A stretch of DNA of 64,000 nt from Candidatus Omnitrophota bacterium (GTDB lineage Bacteria > Omnitrophota > Gorgyraeia > Zapsychrales > Fredricksoniimonadaceae): positions 4,821-68,820 of the forward strand of contig JADFYI010000004.1 in assembly GCA_015233145.1 (NCBI GenBank), in the 5' to 3' direction. Shown in pieces: positions 17,175-64,000 of this stretch (position 1 is the stretch's first letter; each line of letters opens with the position of its first letter). The position numbers and the translations under genes were made by a program. The notes under the pieces were generated by a model. That model was not told the origin of the DNA. It saw only the letters and a list, made by a program, of their open reading frames with translations, and searched no databases.

Positions 17175-17202
17175 ATTATATATAGGGAAGACGGTTTGTC
17201 AA
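17175..17202 (-). promoter_or_regulatory. Near-consensus sigma70-type promoter for pgk-tpiA-secG
   Basis: Minus strand reads TTGACA (17202-17197), 16-nt spacer, TATAAT (17180-17175). It lies ~45 nt upstream of the pgk ATG, and the -35 box overlaps the stop codon of the upstream ligase-like gene. Confidence 0.55.
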
Positions 17203-18488
17203 TGCTCTAGGACGTCTTGCCTGAATGTCCCCATCAAGCCCATCATGAGCCACATGAGAACACTCAACTGCACAGAATAAAATGTGGTGTCTAAAGCGCT
17301 TTCCACAAGAAGCCCTGCCATTCCTGCCATCAAACAAGCCAAAATCCTTTGATCCCTCAATCCTTTAAGCCCAACAAAATTCCGGTAAACTGCTGTAAAA
17401 AAAGCCGCAATAAAACACAAAAAAGACACAAGACCAACAATCCCAAGTTCAGCAGCCGTCTGAAGGTAACAATTATGCGCATAGTTTTGATTCTGCTGCA
17501 CATACGTCTTAATGACATCAGTATAAGTATTAAGCCCTGTTCCCCATAAAGGATGGTCACAGATAATTCTCCAGGCATCCTTCCAATACTGGATCCGTCC
17601 ATCCCCTCCTATCGTGGAAAAAGAACTATGCTGAGTAGAAGAGGTGTCATTAATCAGTGTCATATCCCGGTGATGTGCCAAGAGCGGATGAAAAATTGCC
17701 AAAAATCCGATTGTTAAAACCAATACCGGCAACCATGCCCGCCTCTTTAAAACGACAAAAACTACCGCTGCGCACAACAACCCTACCCATGCTCCGCGAG
17801 AAAAAGTAAGCCCCATGACAGCGAGGATAATACTGGAAGCAACCGCGGCTAAAAAGTATTTAAAAAGTTTTTCGCGTGTCGTTTTCCCTTTTTCGCTCAC
17901 CCAGTTAAAACAAACCACTAACACGCAGGGGATGGCCAGAATCAAATACGCTCCCAAATCATTGGGATGATTCAAAGACGCGTTCACACGGCCGTCGCCC
18001 AGCACAACATGCCTAAAAACATCATGCCCCATTATTCTTTGCCAAAGACCATCCAGGCATAGAATAAAAGCTGAAACCAAAAAACAAGACAAAAACCACA
18101 TCTTACGTTTCGGCGTTGTGACGCTTTCCTGAACCGCTAAAAACACTATGACGACTTTCAATGTTTTTCCAAAAAACGCTTTTACGCTTAACGACGGCAC
18201 AACACTCCAGAAAATGGAAAGGAAACAAACAGCCACAAATGCCATCAAAGTCCAAAATACCCTGGACGGAAAATACCCCGGAAGCACCAAAGCGCTAACC
18301 GCCTTTTTCCAGCGTAACGGCCCGCACGCACTTTGCCAGGCCTTCTGAAAAACAAAAACCTTCTTTAAAAGGAAAAAAAGAATGGCCAGGGCTGAAAAAA
18401 TCGAGACGCCGGCAATTGTTGCCGGAAGGACAAAAATCAGCAAACAAAGCGAGACAAAAATAAACCTGTCAAAATAACGCTCAGCCAT
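17199..18488 (-). CDS. O-antigen ligase/polymerase family (Wzy_C-type) membrane protein
   Basis: About 10-12 TM segments. Motifs: LTFSRGAWVGLL, and YAHNCYLQTAAELGIVGLVSF (the HN...E.G..G motif typical of WaaL/Wzy_C proteins). Confidence 0.7.
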   Translation of the reverse strand: MAERYFDRFIFVSLCLLIFVLPATIAGVSIFSALAILFFLLKKVFVFQKAWQSACGPLRWKKAVSALVLPGYFPSRVFWTLMAFVAVCFLSIFWSVVPSLSVKAFFGKTLKVVIVFLAVQESVTTPKRKMWFLSCFLVSAFILCLDGLWQRIMGHDVFRHVVLGDGRVNASLNHPNDLGAYLILAIPCVLVVCFNWVSEKGKTTREKLFKYFLAAVASSIILAVMGLTFSRGAWVGLLCAAVVFVVLKRRAWLPVLVLTIGFLAIFHPLLAHHRDMTLINDTSSTQHSSFSTIGGDGRIQYWKDAWRIICDHPLWGTGLNTYTDVIKTYVQQNQNYAHNCYLQTAAELGIVGLVSFLCFIAAFFTAVYRNFVGLKGLRDQRILACLMAGMAGLLVESALDTTFYSVQLSVLMWLMMGLMGTFRQDVLEH

Positions 18489-18497
18489 AGTTTTTAC

Positions 18498-19448
18498 CTA
18501 AAAAACAATTGTTTTTTCGTTCTTCCGATACCAGTCGATCGTGCGTTTCAGGCCCTCGCGAAAGGACATTTCTGCTTTAAACCCAAATTCTTTCTGGGCT
18601 CGCGTGACATCCAATTGCCGGCGGGGCTGGCCATCCGGCTTTGAGGCGTCCCATACAATATCCCCTTTAAATCCGGTAAGCTCCACAATCAATCCCACCA
18701 AATCCTTGATGGAAATTTCAAAACCTGCCCCCAGGTTAACCGGCTCGGACTTGTCATATTTTTCGGCCGCTGCCACAATCCCGCGGGCAGCATCATCAAC
18801 ATACAGAAATTCACGCGTGGCATTTCCCGTGCCCCAGACTGTGATCGTTTTCTCATTGTTCTTCCCGGCATCAACGCACTTCTTGATCAGCGCCGGAATA
18901 ACATGGGAAGATTTTGGCGAGAAATTATCTCCCGGGCCGTAAAGGTTCACCGGCAACAAAAAAATGGAATTAAACCCATACTGCTCGCGGTACGCCTGGG
19001 ACTGAACCAAAAGCATTTTTTTAGCCAACCCGTAAGGCGCGTTCGTTTCCTCAGGATACCCGGCCCAAAGGTTTTCTTCCTTAAACGGCACCGGCGTAAA
19101 TTTAGGGTAGGCGCAAATGGTGCCAATGGCGACCATCTTTTTAACCCCGAACAGGCGCGACTGCTCCATAAGCTGGACGCCCATCATCAGGTTTTCATAA
19201 AAGAATTTTCCGGGGTTCGCCCGATTGGCGCCGATGCCTCCGACCACAGCCGCAAGGTGAACCACCATGTCCGGCTTGGCATCATTCAAAAGGCGGACAA
19301 CCGCTTCCTTGTCACAAAGATCATACTCTTTGGAACGAGGAACAACAATGCGGCGGCAACCATGTTTTTGAAGCTCCGCAACAACAACCTGGCCCAAAAA
19401 GCCCGCGCCTCCTGTTACAACAACCTGTTTATCACTCCAAAAACTCAT
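18498..19448 (-). CDS. fcl: GDP-L-fucose synthase (GDP-4-keto-6-deoxy-D-mannose 3,5-epimerase/4-reductase)
   Basis: [12 protein letters not shown] Rossmann motif, YGLAKK (YxxxK), [25 protein letters not shown]. Lies immediately downstream of gmd. Confidence 0.9.
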
Positions 19449-19450
19449 TA

Positions 19451-62080: not shown

Positions 62081-62100
62081 CTTGCTTTCACCGTTATTGA

Positions 62101-62940
62101 TCAAAACCCTACCGGCTCAAAATCATCAAGTCTCACCGCGCATTGCCCGCAACGCACATACGTCAAATCCCCCCTTAAGAAAGGAATGCCAACGGTTTTA
62201 TTTTTATAAATTTTTTCATCAAAAATCTCTGTCACGCGCCATAAAAAATATTTCCGTCCGTTATTCAGGAAAAAAGCGCCCGGATAAGGCCTGGTTTGAG
62301 CGCGCACCCAATTAAAAACCTTACGAGAGCTCCAGCGCCAATCAATAAGGCCTTCTTGAGGTGTACGCTGGCAGCAATAAGTTCTCTTATTTAAATCCTG
62401 AGCCGTCCTCTTAAGATCACCTTGAACAAACATTAAAAAAACTTTTCTCAAAACAACAGGATAACGGCGGCTCATTTTCTTGATCAACGTCCCCCCGGTA
62501 TCGGTGTTTTCAATCAACATCTTTTCCTGATAGACAACAGGCCCGCAGTCGCAAGCCTCCACAATTTCATGAACCGTGATCCCCGTTTCAACCTCATCAT
62601 TGATGATCACCCACGTTACAGGTGTACGCCCCATATATTTTGGCAAAAGCGAATCATGAATATTGAGCGCAAGCTTCCTGGCCTTTTTAAAGATTACTGG
62701 AGGTAAAACAAAAAGATAATTCACTGACATAAGCACGTCAAAAGCCGGAAGCTTCCAAGACGCGGCGTTAATGCGCGGATTACCTTTAAATGCTGGAATA
62801 CCTAACTGTCCCGCCAGCTTAATAATCTCGCCAGAACGGCTGTCCACCAAGACCGCAACAATGCGGATACCCTTTATCTTGGCCAAAGTTTTAAAACCAA
62901 TAAGCCCCAGCCAGCCGGAACAACACGCCAACACTCGCAT
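62101..62940 (-). CDS. Formyltransferase (Fmt/ArnA-N/WbkC-like sugar N-formyltransferase candidate) with C-terminal domain
   Basis: LNIHDSLLPKYMGRTPVTWVIINDE has an intact N-x-H...SLLP..RG motif, with Asp further downstream. The C-terminal ~90 aa resemble the Fmt C-terminal domain. Confidence 0.8.
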   Translation of the reverse strand: MRVLACCSGWLGLIGFKTLAKIKGIRIVAVLVDSRSGEIIKLAGQLGIPAFKGNPRINAASWKLPAFDVLMSVNYLFVLPPVIFKKARKLALNIHDSLLPKYMGRTPVTWVIINDEVETGITVHEIVEACDCGPVVYQEKMLIENTDTGGTLIKKMSRRYPVVLRKVFLMFVQGDLKRTAQDLNKRTYCCQRTPQEGLIDWRWSSRKVFNWVRAQTRPYPGAFFLNNGRKYFLWRVTEIFDEKIYKNKTVGIPFLRGDLTYVRCGQCAVRLDDFEPVGF

Positions 62941-62942
62941 CT

Positions 62943-63989
62943 TTATCTCCTAATATCTGCTGAAGTCAGCGGGGTTCCCCGCTTCAATGCCCTTACAGCC
63001 CGTGCGCCTAATATTTTGGATAATTCCTGAGGGGAAAGACCGTTTCCTGGACGAATAACCCTAATATTATCCCGCGTAAAACTCTCACCCTGTTTTATGT
63101 CTTTAACAACAAATATTGAACGCCTGAACTTGACACTGCCTTTTTCATCAATGGTCTGCCCATAAAAAGGCTGGCCTATGGCCTTCTCGACCGTACGGAT
63201 ATCTTCGACCATCTTTTTAAACTCCGTTGGAGTCACGGAAAACGCCGCATCCGGTGAAAGATCCTCGCGGGAAAGCGTAAAATGCTTCTCAATAATTTTG
63301 GCACCCAAAGCTACAGCAGCAACAGCAACAGCTGAGGATAACGTATGATCTGATAAACCCGCAACAACTTGAAACTCCTTTTGCAAAGAAGGAATGCTCA
63401 TAAGATTCATTTCTTCCGGACTGGCGGGATAAGCGCTAACGCATTTTAAAAGCGCCACATCAGGAGCGCCGCTCCTGCGCAAAATCTCCACAGCATGAAA
63501 GATTTCTTTTTCTGAAGCCATTCCCGTTGATAAAATTACCGGCTTCCTTTTGGAGGCCGTATAAGCCAAAAGCTCATCGTCCACAAGCTCAAAAGAAGCA
63601 ATCTTGTAAACAGGGACATCCAGCTGTTCTAAAAAATCCACAGCCGTCTCATCAAATGGCGTTGAAAAGAAATCCAGCCCCAATTTTCCTGCTTCATTTT
63701 GCAACGGCTGGTGCCATTCCCACGGAGTATAGGCCTGCTGATAAAGTTGATATAAACTTTTCCCTCCCCATAAAGGATGGCTCCCTATTTGAAAATACTC
63801 ATTATCACAATCCATTGTCATGGTATCGGGCGTATACGTCTGCAACTTAATCGCGTCTGCCCCGGCATCCTTAGCAGCTCGAATTAACTTCAACGCCTTT
63901 TCAAAAGACTGTCCGTGATTAGCTGACATTTCTGCGATAATATAACAAGGACAACCTTCCCCAATTATTCGATTCTTAAGTTTAATCAT
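62943..63989 (-). CDS. pseI: Nonulosonic acid synthase of the NeuB family, most similar in motif content to pseudaminic acid synthase
   Basis: IIAEMSANHGQS (the SANH variant I associate with PseI rather than the NeuB pattern IGINH), AIKLQTYTPD, TPWEWH, YKIASFE, LKCVSAYPASPEEMNL, GLSDHT, IIEKHFTL. A C-terminal SAF domain is present (FVVKDIKQGESFTRDNIRVIRPG). Confidence 0.8.
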   Translation of the reverse strand: MIKLKNRIIGEGCPCYIIAEMSANHGQSFEKALKLIRAAKDAGADAIKLQTYTPDTMTMDCDNEYFQIGSHPLWGGKSLYQLYQQAYTPWEWHQPLQNEAGKLGLDFFSTPFDETAVDFLEQLDVPVYKIASFELVDDELLAYTASKRKPVILSTGMASEKEIFHAVEILRRSGAPDVALLKCVSAYPASPEEMNLMSIPSLQKEFQVVAGLSDHTLSSAVAVAAVALGAKIIEKHFTLSREDLSPDAAFSVTPTEFKKMVEDIRTVEKAIGQPFYGQTIDEKGSVKFRRSIFVVKDIKQGESFTRDNIRVIRPGNGLSPQELSKILGARAVRALKRGTPLTSADIRR

Positions 63990-64000
63990 GCTATTTCTTC

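Follow-up and report, generated by a model that had tools for sequence, protein, structure and literature searches.

The 64,000-nt stretch of contig JADFYI010000004.1 analysed here (the window), from a Candidatus Omnitrophota bacterium, carries a glycan biosynthesis locus of at least 47 kb. It consists of 45 consecutive open reading frames (ORFs), all on the minus strand, that occupy positions 17199-63989 and make 98.5% of these 46,791 nt coding. An earlier account prepared without database searches (the sequence-only reading) had described a gene-dense glycan locus of this size, rich in tailoring functions, and this description held. Every ORF was scanned against Pfam and NCBIfam, with matches above the family cut-off regarded as solid (Table 1, in which, as in the text, genes are named by their first coordinate). 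The scans reproduced the earlier inventory closely and did not move its genes to unrelated families: one initiating phosphoglycosyltransferase, six glycosyltransferases (GTs) of family GT2, three of GT4 and one of GT26, two Wzy_C proteins, four radical S-adenosylmethionine (SAM) enzymes, an AT3 acyltransferase and an aminotransferase all scored above cut-off. The genes proposed for a cytidine monophosphate (CMP)-nonulosonate were likewise found, as a CTP_transf_3 protein and a NeuB-family protein that is specifically PseI, a pseudaminic acid synthase. The initiating transferase 20483 is the only one within the window.

Other entries of that inventory were right in part. Four of the six methyltransferase domains are clear (26633, 41696, 52821 and 54090), but the other two (34354 and the C-terminus of 37288) lie below cut-off, and the GT-A half of the 37288 fusion has low-significance matches only. 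Of the two supposed deacetylases, the PIG-L protein 60681 stands but 55909 falls short of its cut-off; of the two formyltransferases, 62101 stands, whereas 61403 shows a C-terminal domain and a weak N-terminus. For guanosine diphosphate (GDP)-fucose, gmd matches its equivalog family, but the best match of fcl is below cut-off.

Eight locus proteins have no Pfam match at E <= 0.001. For 22758, 28106, 57666, 51229, 32434, 43602 and 45084, neither Pfam at E <= 10 nor NCBIfam gave anything meaningful, and PDB sequence searches with 45084, 43602, 51229, 37288, 32434 and the 22758 family profile returned no match. By hydropathy, seven locus proteins are polytopic, namely the two Wzy_C proteins, the initiating transferase, the AT3 protein and the orphans 22758, 28106 and 57666. 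Scans for tRNAs and Rfam families found no match.

Most junctions are as tight as had been reported, with neighbours overlapping by 1-14 nt or separated by 0-40 nt at 34 of the 44. Five gaps measure 62-87 nt, the largest being 87 nt, and the apparent overlaps of 25-89 nt at five junctions are an artefact of choosing the longest possible ORF. The left boundary is sharp: beyond the Wzy_C gene 17199, the last gene of the locus, come pgk, tpiA, secG and an opp-type transporter. A sigma-70 consensus (TTGACA-16-TATAAT, 12/12) at 17202->17175 on the minus strand spans the Wzy_C-pgk gap and overlaps the Wzy_C stop codon; no other site scanned between 17000 and 64000, on whichever strand, matches at 12/12. 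Inside the locus, promoter-like sites (observed vs expected, 38 vs 35.2, 36 vs 36.3 and 12 vs 12.8) and terminator-like sites (36 vs 27.6, 22 vs 23.8 and 10 vs 7.1) occur at chance level. Neither scan thus points to internal operon boundaries, and consensus scans are weak evidence in this phylum.

That the locus lies entirely on one strand is true but not specific to it. The minus strand holds all 58 large ORFs of the window (2912-63989, ~61 kb), and GC skew is negative over the whole window, housekeeping genes included. Because pgk, tpiA, secG and the opp transporter are co-oriented too, the shared strand is no evidence for a single unit; co-orientation is a property of the chromosomal arm, not of the glycan locus. 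At the other end, the locus continues past the window edge at 64000, as had been proposed, because pseI is the sole strongly identified core pse gene in the window, and three relatives carry pseB, pseC and pseF directly upstream of pseI.

Table 1. Features of the locus, with positions in the window and the supporting profile or fold evidence (TM, transmembrane; NDP, nucleoside diphosphate; SDR, short-chain dehydrogenase/reductase)
Position	Strand	Feature	Evidence
17164-17198	-	Left boundary gap	35 nt between Wzy_C stop and pgk start
17199-18488	-	Wzy_C-family polytopic protein	Pfam Wzy_C 86.6 bits; weak RfaL match; ~11 TM segments
18498-19448	-	fcl	Pfam Epimerase above cut-off; best NCBIfam GDP-L-fucose synthase 302.7 bits, cut-off 500
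19451-20467	-	gmd	TIGR01472 545.6 bits, cut-off 415
20483-21901	-	Initiating polyprenyl-phosphate hexose-1-phosphate transferase, large WbaP/WcaJ type	Bac_transf 229 bits and CoA_binding_3; TIGR03025 411, cut-off 295.6
21916-22686	-	GT26 (WecG/TagA/CpsF)	Pfam 198 bits; TIGR00696 164.9, cut-off 69
22758-24380	-	540-aa polytopic membrane protein, unannotated family	~11 TM segments
24451 (block 24451-28068)	-	NDP-sugar epimerase/dehydratase	Pfam
25529	-	GT4	Pfam
26633	-	SAM methyltransferase, clear	Pfam
27352 (block end 28068)	-	Small GT2, polyprenyl-phosphate sugar synthase-like	Pfam; NCBIfam AglJ, ArnC, dolichyl-phosphate hexose transferase and PpgS, all sub-cut-off
28106-30091	-	661-aa predicted GT-C-fold membrane glycosyltransferase	AlphaFold2 and Foldseek
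30109-31638	-	Second Wzy_C-family protein, variable region	Pfam Wzy_C 42.9 bits, cut-off 31.7
31614	-	GT2	Pfam
32434	-	Orphan	No meaningful Pfam/NCBIfam match
33153	-	GT4	Pfam
34354	-	Weak methyltransferase	Below cut-off
35161	-	AT3 acyltransferase	Pfam
36224	-	Radical SAM/SPASM	Pfam
37288	-	GT-A-like and methyltransferase fusion	GT25/GT2 matches E ~0.004-0.01; C-terminal methyltransferase below cut-off
38895	-	GT2	Pfam
39778	-	GT2, polyprenyl-phosphate sugar synthase-like	Pfam; NCBIfam sub-cut-off
40477	-	GT4	Pfam
41696	-	SAM methyltransferase, clear	Pfam
42453	-	DegT aminotransferase, LegC/PseC-like	LegC 334.7 and PseC 277.6 bits, both sub-cut-off
43602	-	Orphan	No meaningful Pfam/NCBIfam match
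44662	-	WbuC-like cupin	Pfam
45084	-	Orphan	No meaningful Pfam/NCBIfam match
46277	-	SDR	Pfam
47026	-	D-2-hydroxyacid dehydrogenase	Pfam
47989	-	CMP-sugar cytidylyltransferase (CTP_transf_3)	Pfam; PseF 94.5 bits, cut-off 205.7
48654-49304	-	Arylformamidase-like cyclase	TIGR03035 141.8 bits, sub-cut-off
49291 (block 49291-56769)	-	GT2	Pfam
50269	-	Radical SAM/SPASM	Pfam
51229	-	530-aa orphan	No meaningful Pfam/NCBIfam match
52821	-	SAM methyltransferase, clear	Pfam
54090	-	SAM methyltransferase, clear	Pfam
54830	-	Radical SAM/SPASM	Pfam
55909 (block end 56769)	-	Weak polysaccharide deacetylase	21.9 bits, cut-off 23.1
56788	-	GT2 with 3 C-terminal TM segments	AglJ 129.5 and PpgS 96.5 bits, sub-cut-off; ArnC-like
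57666 (module 56788-59189)	-	507-aa predicted GT-C-fold glycosyltransferase	AlphaFold2 and Foldseek
59252-60655	-	B12-binding-domain radical SAM	Pfam B12-binding 69.1 bits, Radical_SAM 59.2 bits
60681 (block 60681-63989)	-	PIG-L deacetylase	Pfam
61403	-	Truncated formyltransferase-like protein	C-terminal domain and weak N-terminal similarity
62101	-	Formyltransferase	Pfam
62943-63989	-	Pseudaminic acid synthase PseI (NeuB family)	TIGR03586 479.9 bits, cut-off 340.3

Membrane glycosyltransferases, pseudaminic acid genes and radical SAM enzymes

Three proteins had been described as GT-C-like. Structure prediction with AlphaFold2 and Foldseek searches of the PDB support this for 28106 and 57666, while 22758 is without an assigned fold. 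The 57666 model, built on 52 homologues, reached a predicted local distance difference test score (pLDDT) of 90.8 and a predicted TM-score (pTM) of 0.93; its best 26 PDB matches were all GT-C enzymes (AglB, STT3, ALG12, ArnT, PglB, AftB and Emb) and included no flippase, with a Foldseek probability of 1.00 and moderate query-normalised TM-scores (0.37-0.47). This fold, together with the absence of a MOP-family match, rules out 57666 as the missing Wzx. Residues D39 and D40 are kept in at least 90% of the 52 sequences, and one homologue contains Pfam PMT_2. The family is not always embedded in a glycan locus, a member standing alone after serS in the related locus L081.

The 28106 model was less confident (pLDDT 74.4). 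Its best 11 PDB matches were again all GT-C, including ArnT, ALG9, ALG12, Pmt4, AftA, Pmt1 (twice), ALG3 and AftB, at moderate target-normalised TM-scores of 0.21-0.45, and the enzymes matched all use polyprenyl-phosphate monosaccharide donors. W137, D139, D141 and E142 are invariant among 12 sequences of the family, which is small (14 homologues found, 0/14 with a Pfam domain) and whose members always lie within glycan loci, with a small GT2 and a GT4 as neighbours. The NCBI model of this gene (HQL16_03030, 602 aa) appears to start 59 codons late, as eleven orthologues of 654-663 aa align across the 661-aa ORF. Both 28106 and 57666 are thus predicted to adopt the GT-C fold with a conserved acidic motif in the first loop, itself predicted to be extracytoplasmic, and both appear to represent GT-C families without database annotation.

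The 22758 family has 209 cluster representatives among 1.84 billion proteins, and searches with 59 members gave no Pfam, NCBIfam or PDB match. Profile-profile alignment (hhalign) linked it weakly to the 28106 family (probability 53%, E 1.4e-4) and not to the 57666 family, so that 22758 is possibly GT-C-like. The idea that the three polytopic orphans are paralogues was rejected: BLAST and hhalign link 57666 to neither of the others, and the 22758-28106 link is weak.

Three of the six GT2 proteins (27352, 39778 and 56788) find their best matches, all below cut-off, among AglJ, PpgS, ArnC and dolichyl-phosphate hexose synthases, which attach a sugar to polyprenyl phosphate, and two of these three adjoin a GT-C gene (27352 with 28106, and 56788 with 57666). 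Similar arrangements occur in relatives. In L091, a B12 radical SAM gene is followed by a GT2 that is 40% identical to 27352 and then by a 57666 homologue; in L092 a GT2 is followed by a 672-aa orphan and next by a 28106 orthologue; and in L082 a fusion of GT2, GtrA_DPMS_TM and methyltransferase lies directly upstream of a 28106 orthologue. In Gtr and Arn systems, a sugar is first loaded onto a lipid phosphate inside the cell; the product is then flipped, and a GT-C enzyme transfers the sugar on the outside. Since AglJ/ArnC/PpgS-like GT2 genes adjoin the GT-C genes and a GT2-GtrA fusion occurs in L082, we infer by analogy that 28106 and 57666 use a polyprenyl-phosphate-linked sugar donor.

At the right end of the window, no PseB, PseG or PseH was found, and the PseC and PseF candidates of the window (42453 and 47989) match below cut-off only and are 28-32% identical to the pseC and pseF products of relatives. 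These two genes, which share a block with the SDR, the 2-hydroxyacid dehydrogenase, the cupin and two orphans, may serve a second activated sugar. The cyclase/arylformamidase-like gene at 48654-49304 overlaps the cytidylyltransferase gene; given the two formyltransferase homologues in the locus, its product could act as a sugar N-deformylase. In three loci with close PseI homologues (L086, which has the closest on a long contig, and the Omnitrophota loci L087 and L089), an AP_endonuc_2 gene and a cytidylyltransferase gene lie directly upstream of pseI, with an aminotransferase and a PseB-type dehydratase further upstream. The position 3' of pseI is held by a formyltransferase in the window, by one 52% identical to 62101 in L087, and by an acetyltransferase in L086 and L089. 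PseI is fused to Formyl_trans_N in some metagenomic proteins and to a GNAT acetyltransferase in others (P0141, P0165, P0074, P0126 and P0162), fusions that suggest interchangeable N-acyl tailoring coupled to PseI. The pseI-formyltransferase adjacency in L087 and the PseI-formyltransferase fusions support a product that is probably an N-formylated pseudaminic-type sugar. Sugars of this type occur in Pseudomonas O-antigens.

The sequence-only reading had recognised no Wzx, Wzz, Wza or ATP-binding cassette (ABC) exporter in the window, and we agree: Polysacc_synt/MurJ/MatE, Wzz, Wza and ABC domains are absent from all 45 locus proteins in Pfam and NCBIfam. In L087 (1199-2995) and L089 (1-1016), however, an ABC half-transporter stands beside pseB, and the one from L087 can be aligned over its full length with PglK/WlaB (262 bits, E 8e-77), the Campylobacter lipid-linked-oligosaccharide flippase. 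In L090, a 28106 orthologue has a Wzx gene five genes upstream of it, and this Wzx gene is three genes away from a radical SAM gene. Because relatives carry a PglK-like ABC protein or Wzx beside homologous genes, the absence of a flippase is probably an effect of the window edge. A further Omnitrophota glycan locus, L084, contains an ABC half-transporter at 1579-3315.

The four radical SAM enzymes comprise three with a SPASM domain (36224, 50269 and 54830) and one with a B12-binding domain (59252), and none reaches an NCBIfam family cut-off. The best NCBIfam matches of 59252 are HpnJ, BchE and a ladderane-lipid radical SAM enzyme, all far below cut-off, and its closest solved relative is AprD4 (E 2.8e-10); the closest solved relatives of 54830 are SkfB and BlsE (E 1.2e-7). 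AprD4 is an aminoglycoside sugar dehydratase, BlsE a sugar decarboxylase, and HpnJ rearranges a lipid-linked amino sugar. The similarities to AprD4, BlsE and SkfB are weak and owed for the most part to the radical SAM core common to all of them. Genes of this kind are present in four of eight related glycan loci (L084, L086, L090 and L091); L090 has one plain and three B12-type enzymes, the latter 22-24% identical to 59252. A metagenome scan with 54830 gave a single irrelevant match at 20% identity. Radical SAM genes are also listed, without assigned function, inside the capsule locus of C. jejuni HS:19 (PMC8743553). Sugar tailoring is the most plausible putative role of the radical SAM enzymes in the locus.

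Comparative genomics, proposed assembly route and competing explanations

Three window proteins are 100% identical to NCBI proteins from a Candidatus Omnitrophica/Omnitrophota metagenome-assembled genome (locus tags HQL16_03030 and HQL16_03175, accessions MBF0485497.1 and MBF0485502.1; contig of 136,530 bp). The nearest Pgk sequences are those of the Omnitrophota metagenome-assembled genomes MBPbin6 (85% identity) and AM-lipid-02-D9_bin-0629 (83%). Orthologues of 17199 (37-42% identity) lie directly upstream of pgk in three relatives (L001, L002 and L003); fcl and gmd are 76-83% identical in L001 and L002, and the initiating transferase 70-71%. For the sister species, loci L002 and L082 belong to one 157-kb contig, and the sister locus extends over at least 27 kb upstream of pgk, with glycan genes still present at the end of the sequence compared. 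Counted from pgk, the sister carries Wzy_C (40%), fcl (80%), gmd (81%), the initiating transferase (71%), GT26 (62%), the 540-aa protein (50%), the epimerase (65%), GT4 (65%), the 661-aa GT-C protein (48%), the second Wzy_C (33%) and a GT2 (60%), followed by further GT4-like and GT-A-like genes and then a 38895-type GT2 (57%). These counterparts cover a backbone equivalent to 17.2-39.7 kb, with insertions and swaps. Three AAA_14/DUF4143 ATPase genes and others are interspersed among the sister glycan genes (L082 fusion/insert coordinates 8320-9984, 13384-14583, 16526-17836 and 19001-20161).

Between the conserved genes lie variable parts. The block at 31614-42541 is made up of glycosyltransferase and tailoring genes with a GC content of 0.36-0.45, and from it L082 holds orthologues of 31614 (60%) and 38895 (57%) only; a sugar-nucleotide modification block follows at 42453-49304 (minus strand). 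Per-gene GC ranges from 0.36 to 0.52 across the locus, with low-GC islands at ~28-36 kb and at 50.3-54 kb (0.38-0.40 in the latter), a pattern typical of horizontally exchanged glycan modules. Variable polysaccharide cassettes, including one of 25 kb, are described in a preprint on Omnitrophota genomes (10.64898/2026.06.07.730766). The comparison with related genomes thus showed a left backbone (17.2-39.7 kb) that is conserved with indels, with variable insertions between its genes. The suggestion of one very complex glycan is unproven, given the GC mosaic and a sister backbone seen for 17.2-39.7 kb in the sequence compared; a conserved pgk-proximal core with variable, GC-mosaic, horizontally exchanged islands as add-on modules fits better.

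Taking these data together, we consider it probable that the region is a chromosomal locus for an undecaprenyl-diphosphate-linked, Wzy-type surface heteropolysaccharide, most likely a lipopolysaccharide (LPS) O-antigen-like glycan. A single unit is favoured by the lone initiating transferase, by gaps of at most 87 nt, and by promoter-like and terminator-like sites that stay at chance level. Of the two Wzy_C proteins, 17199 is likely a WaaL-type ligase and 30109 likely the repeat-unit polymerase, because 17199 keeps its pgk-adjacent position in three relatives and the internal Wzy_C is divergent. The absence of Wza, Wzc and Wzz from the window is consistent with a glycan that is ligated to lipid A-core and leaves the cell through the housekeeping Lpt system, and an LPS core heptosyltransferase (Glyco_transf_9) is present in an Omnitrophota relative.

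In the route that we propose, the gene identities come from the analysis, and the order of steps, every substrate and every acceptor are inferred. Enzyme 20483 would load hexose-1-phosphate onto undecaprenyl phosphate, and GT26 21916 would attach the second sugar, as WecG/TagA/CpsF enzymes typically do. The repeat unit would then grow on the cytoplasmic side through three GT4 enzymes, three ordinary GT2 enzymes and the GT-A-like fusion enzyme. Their donors would include GDP-fucose, supplied by gmd/fcl, and a CMP-activated nonulosonate of the pseudaminic-acid type, probably N-formylated and supplied by pseI, the formyltransferase and the cytidylyltransferase; the other pse genes are predicted to lie just past 64000. 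SAM methyltransferases, deacetylases and the four radical SAM enzymes would act on sugars or lipid-linked intermediates. Analogy with radical SAM enzymes that act on sugars makes C-methylation, deoxygenation, epimerisation or decarboxylation the likely chemistry. By synteny with relatives, a PglK-type ABC flippase or Wzx encoded outside the window would flip the product, which the variable Wzy_C 30109 would polymerise on the periplasmic face. Meanwhile 27352, 39778 and 56788 may make undecaprenyl-phosphate monosaccharides, which the GT-C enzymes 28106, 57666 and perhaps 22758 would transfer as side branches, as in Gtr/Arn, and the AT3 protein 35161 may O-acylate the glycan. Finally, the conserved terminal Wzy_C 17199 would join the product to its acceptor.

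Several points weigh against this assignment. No MOP-family Wzx flippase lies in the window. Polymerase, ligase and PglL are not separable by sequence, so the ligase and polymerase roles are positional, and the Wzy_C family includes the PglL/PilO protein O-oligosaccharyltransferases; the acceptor could be lipid A-core, protein or free polymer. The polyprenyl-phosphate sugar synthase matches of 27352, 39778 and 56788 are all below cut-off, and the radical SAM enzymes match no characterised family, their sugar substrates being predictions. The GC mosaic, with conservation seen for the left half alone, may reflect two or more glycans. The source being a metagenome-assembled genome, a hypervariable region may also have been misassembled, although the gene order is continuous on a 136.5-kb NCBI contig.

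In the strongest alternative, at least two independent glycan systems are juxtaposed: a conserved O-antigen/exopolysaccharide (EPS)-type cluster (~17-40 kb) and a separately acquired nonulosonate/modified-sugar island (~40-64+ kb), whose apparent continuity arises from a co-oriented, compact chromosomal stretch. The co-orientation of all 58 ORFs, housekeeping genes included, and the uniform GC skew would explain that continuity; per-gene GC falls into distinct blocks between 0.36 and 0.52, sister counterparts are confined to the 17.2-39.7 kb backbone within the sister sequence compared, and pse clusters occur in differing contexts in other Omnitrophota. Two Wzy_C proteins and three GT2/GT-C modules also speak for it. 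However, the 47 kb hold a single initiating transferase, the largest gap is 87 nt with no excess of terminators or promoters, and the sister sequence compared ends before the equivalent of the right half, so that we regard two systems as possible but rather doubtful.

A bolder reading concerns the chemistry. It supposes that anaerobic Omnitrophota decorate their surface glycan by chemistry undescribed for envelope polysaccharides. The four uncharacterised radical SAM enzymes would make sugars that are C-methylated, deoxy, epimerised or ring-rearranged, two or more unannotated GT-C families would install them periplasmically from undecaprenyl-phosphate carriers, and a PglK-type ABC flippase would replace Wzx. 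We offer this reading as a speculation that is rather unlikely to hold.

Another alternative is general protein O-glycosylation (of S-layer, pilin, flagellin or envelope proteins), with one Wzy_C as a PglL-type oligosaccharyltransferase, a type that the Wzy_C family includes. Pseudaminic acid is a classic component of flagellin and pilin glycans, a PglK-like flippase adjoins pse genes in relatives, the GT2 proteins match best to AglJ, which serves N-glycosylation of the archaeal S-layer, and the top fold matches of 57666 are AglB, STT3 and PglB. Yet 57666 (507 aa) is shorter than the matched AglB/STT3/PglB chains (639-867 residues), which suggests that the C-terminal periplasmic domain is absent; 17199 has a weak match to RfaL, the O-antigen ligase, and none specific to PglL; and the window contains no Maf (motility-associated factor), flagellin, pilin or S-layer gene. 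On these grounds protein O-glycosylation seems improbable, and a flagellin glycosylation island was rejected for want of Maf and flagellin genes within the window. That the radical SAM/SPASM genes form an embedded cluster for a ribosomally synthesised and post-translationally modified peptide (RiPP) or for cofactor maturation, apart from the glycan, is very improbable: SPASM enzymes are best known as peptide maturases and many weak NCBIfam matches are to such enzymes, but no maturase family cut-off is reached, gaps of <=87 nt in 98.5% coding DNA leave no room for precursor-peptide ORFs, the protease and transporter genes typical of RiPP clusters are absent, radical SAM genes recur in the glycan loci of relatives (L084, L086, L090 and L091), and BlsE and AprD4, both of which act on sugars, are among the closest solved relatives.

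Outside the locus, at 5553-9100, the window encodes a 778-aa protein with ~7 N-terminal TM segments and C-terminal tetratricopeptide repeats (TPR), followed by a GlmU-like sugar-1-phosphate nucleotidyltransferase. Omnitrophota loci L002, L004 and L007 keep these two together, and they may represent a second envelope-glycan function apart from that of the locus. Membership of the 57666 family was considered for the TPR membrane protein at 6764 and rejected, there being no profile link. Downstream of the nucleotidyltransferase, a radical SAM gene at 3748-4734 lies between Pfam-less ORFs at 2912-3820 and 4731-5519.

Comparison with known glycan systems

The locus resembles the Wzx/Wzy O-antigen and EPS clusters, such as Salmonella rfb and the E. 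coli colanic acid wca cluster, in its WbaP/WcaJ-type initiator, multiple GT2 and GT4 enzymes, Wzy_C-family proteins (here a probable polymerase and ligase), gmd/fcl, AT3 O-acetyltransferase, tight one-strand organisation and lower-GC variable parts. Unlike them, it lacks Wzx and Wzz over the 47 kb seen, has three to four times their size, and contains four radical SAM enzymes, two membrane enzymes of predicted GT-C fold with a possible third, and eight proteins without a Pfam match. The earlier claim that it is far beyond a normal O-antigen locus is overstated: in some Leptospira strains the rfb locus is longer than 100 kb (PMC13111663), and related Omnitrophota loci are long and rich in radical SAM genes. 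The Leptospira loci, too, are very large and gene-dense, with conserved and variable parts, and are rich in methyltransferases, glycosyltransferases, pyridoxal phosphate-dependent aminotransferases and cupins (PMC10958091); they belong to another phylum, hold Wzx and the rfbABCD rhamnose genes, and are described in PMC13111663 and PMC10958091 without mention of radical SAM genes. In L086, the Pfam families Lept_O_ant_chp1 and LIC12162, whose names derive from Leptospira O-antigen proteins, occur at 14371-15528, 19722-20888 and 20962-21050, a hint that distant phyla with giant glycan loci may share genes; the window proteins gave no match to these L086 genes.

With the Gtr (GtrA/GtrB/GtrC) and Arn (ArnC/ArnD/ArnE-F/ArnT) systems, the locus shares a small polyprenyl-phosphate-synthase-like GT2 beside a GT-C transferase. 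For Gtr, the likeness extends to the GT2 fused to GtrA_DPMS_TM in L082; for Arn, to a formyltransferase, a deacetylase-family protein and an aminotransferase in one locus, with ArnT among the best fold matches. However, the window lacks GtrA, an ArnE/F small flippase and a UDP-glucuronate decarboxylase domain, and the GT-C proteins have no sequence-profile link to PMT_2, save for one 57666 homologue. The block 55909-62940 was rejected as a true Arn pathway, because its ArnA formyltransferase-domain, ArnB and ArnC matches are far below cut-off and the C-terminal part of ArnA and ArnE/F (no small DMT/SMR gene) are missing, which leaves an analogy only. The conserved adjacency to pseI suggests that the formyltransferase acts on pseudaminic acid rather than on 4-amino-4-deoxy-L-arabinose. 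The C. jejuni pgl system and the H. pylori Wzk O-antigen route offer a further parallel: the PglK-like ABC protein beside the pse genes of relatives would provide Wzx-independent flipping followed by a Wzy_C-family ligase, although the window has no such ABC gene, its presence in this genome being a prediction from synteny, and L090 uses Wzx.

Omnitrophota are uncultured, often ultra-small and possibly host-dependent, and their surface chemistry probably governs attachment, predation and phage susceptibility. For such a surface the locus provides a predicted parts list, comprising fucose, a formylated pseudaminic-type acid, heavy methylation and periplasmic side branches. The radical SAM enzymes recall those acting on antibiotic sugars (AprD4, BlsE, GenK, BtrN and NeoN) and the hopanoid enzyme HpnJ, among which are the closest solved relatives or the best NCBIfam match of 59252 and 54830, but the similarity is far below family cut-offs and the context here is a surface polysaccharide locus rather than a hopanoid or secondary-metabolite cluster; as a set that recurs in the glycan loci of Omnitrophota and similar uncultured bacteria, they are candidates for new sugar-modifying reactions. 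In summary, compared with known systems, the locus is a large, unusually decorated example of a familiar class rather than a new system, and what is less usual about it is its four radical SAM genes, its three putative GT2/GT-C side-branch modules built on unannotated GT-C families, and its eight Pfam-less proteins.

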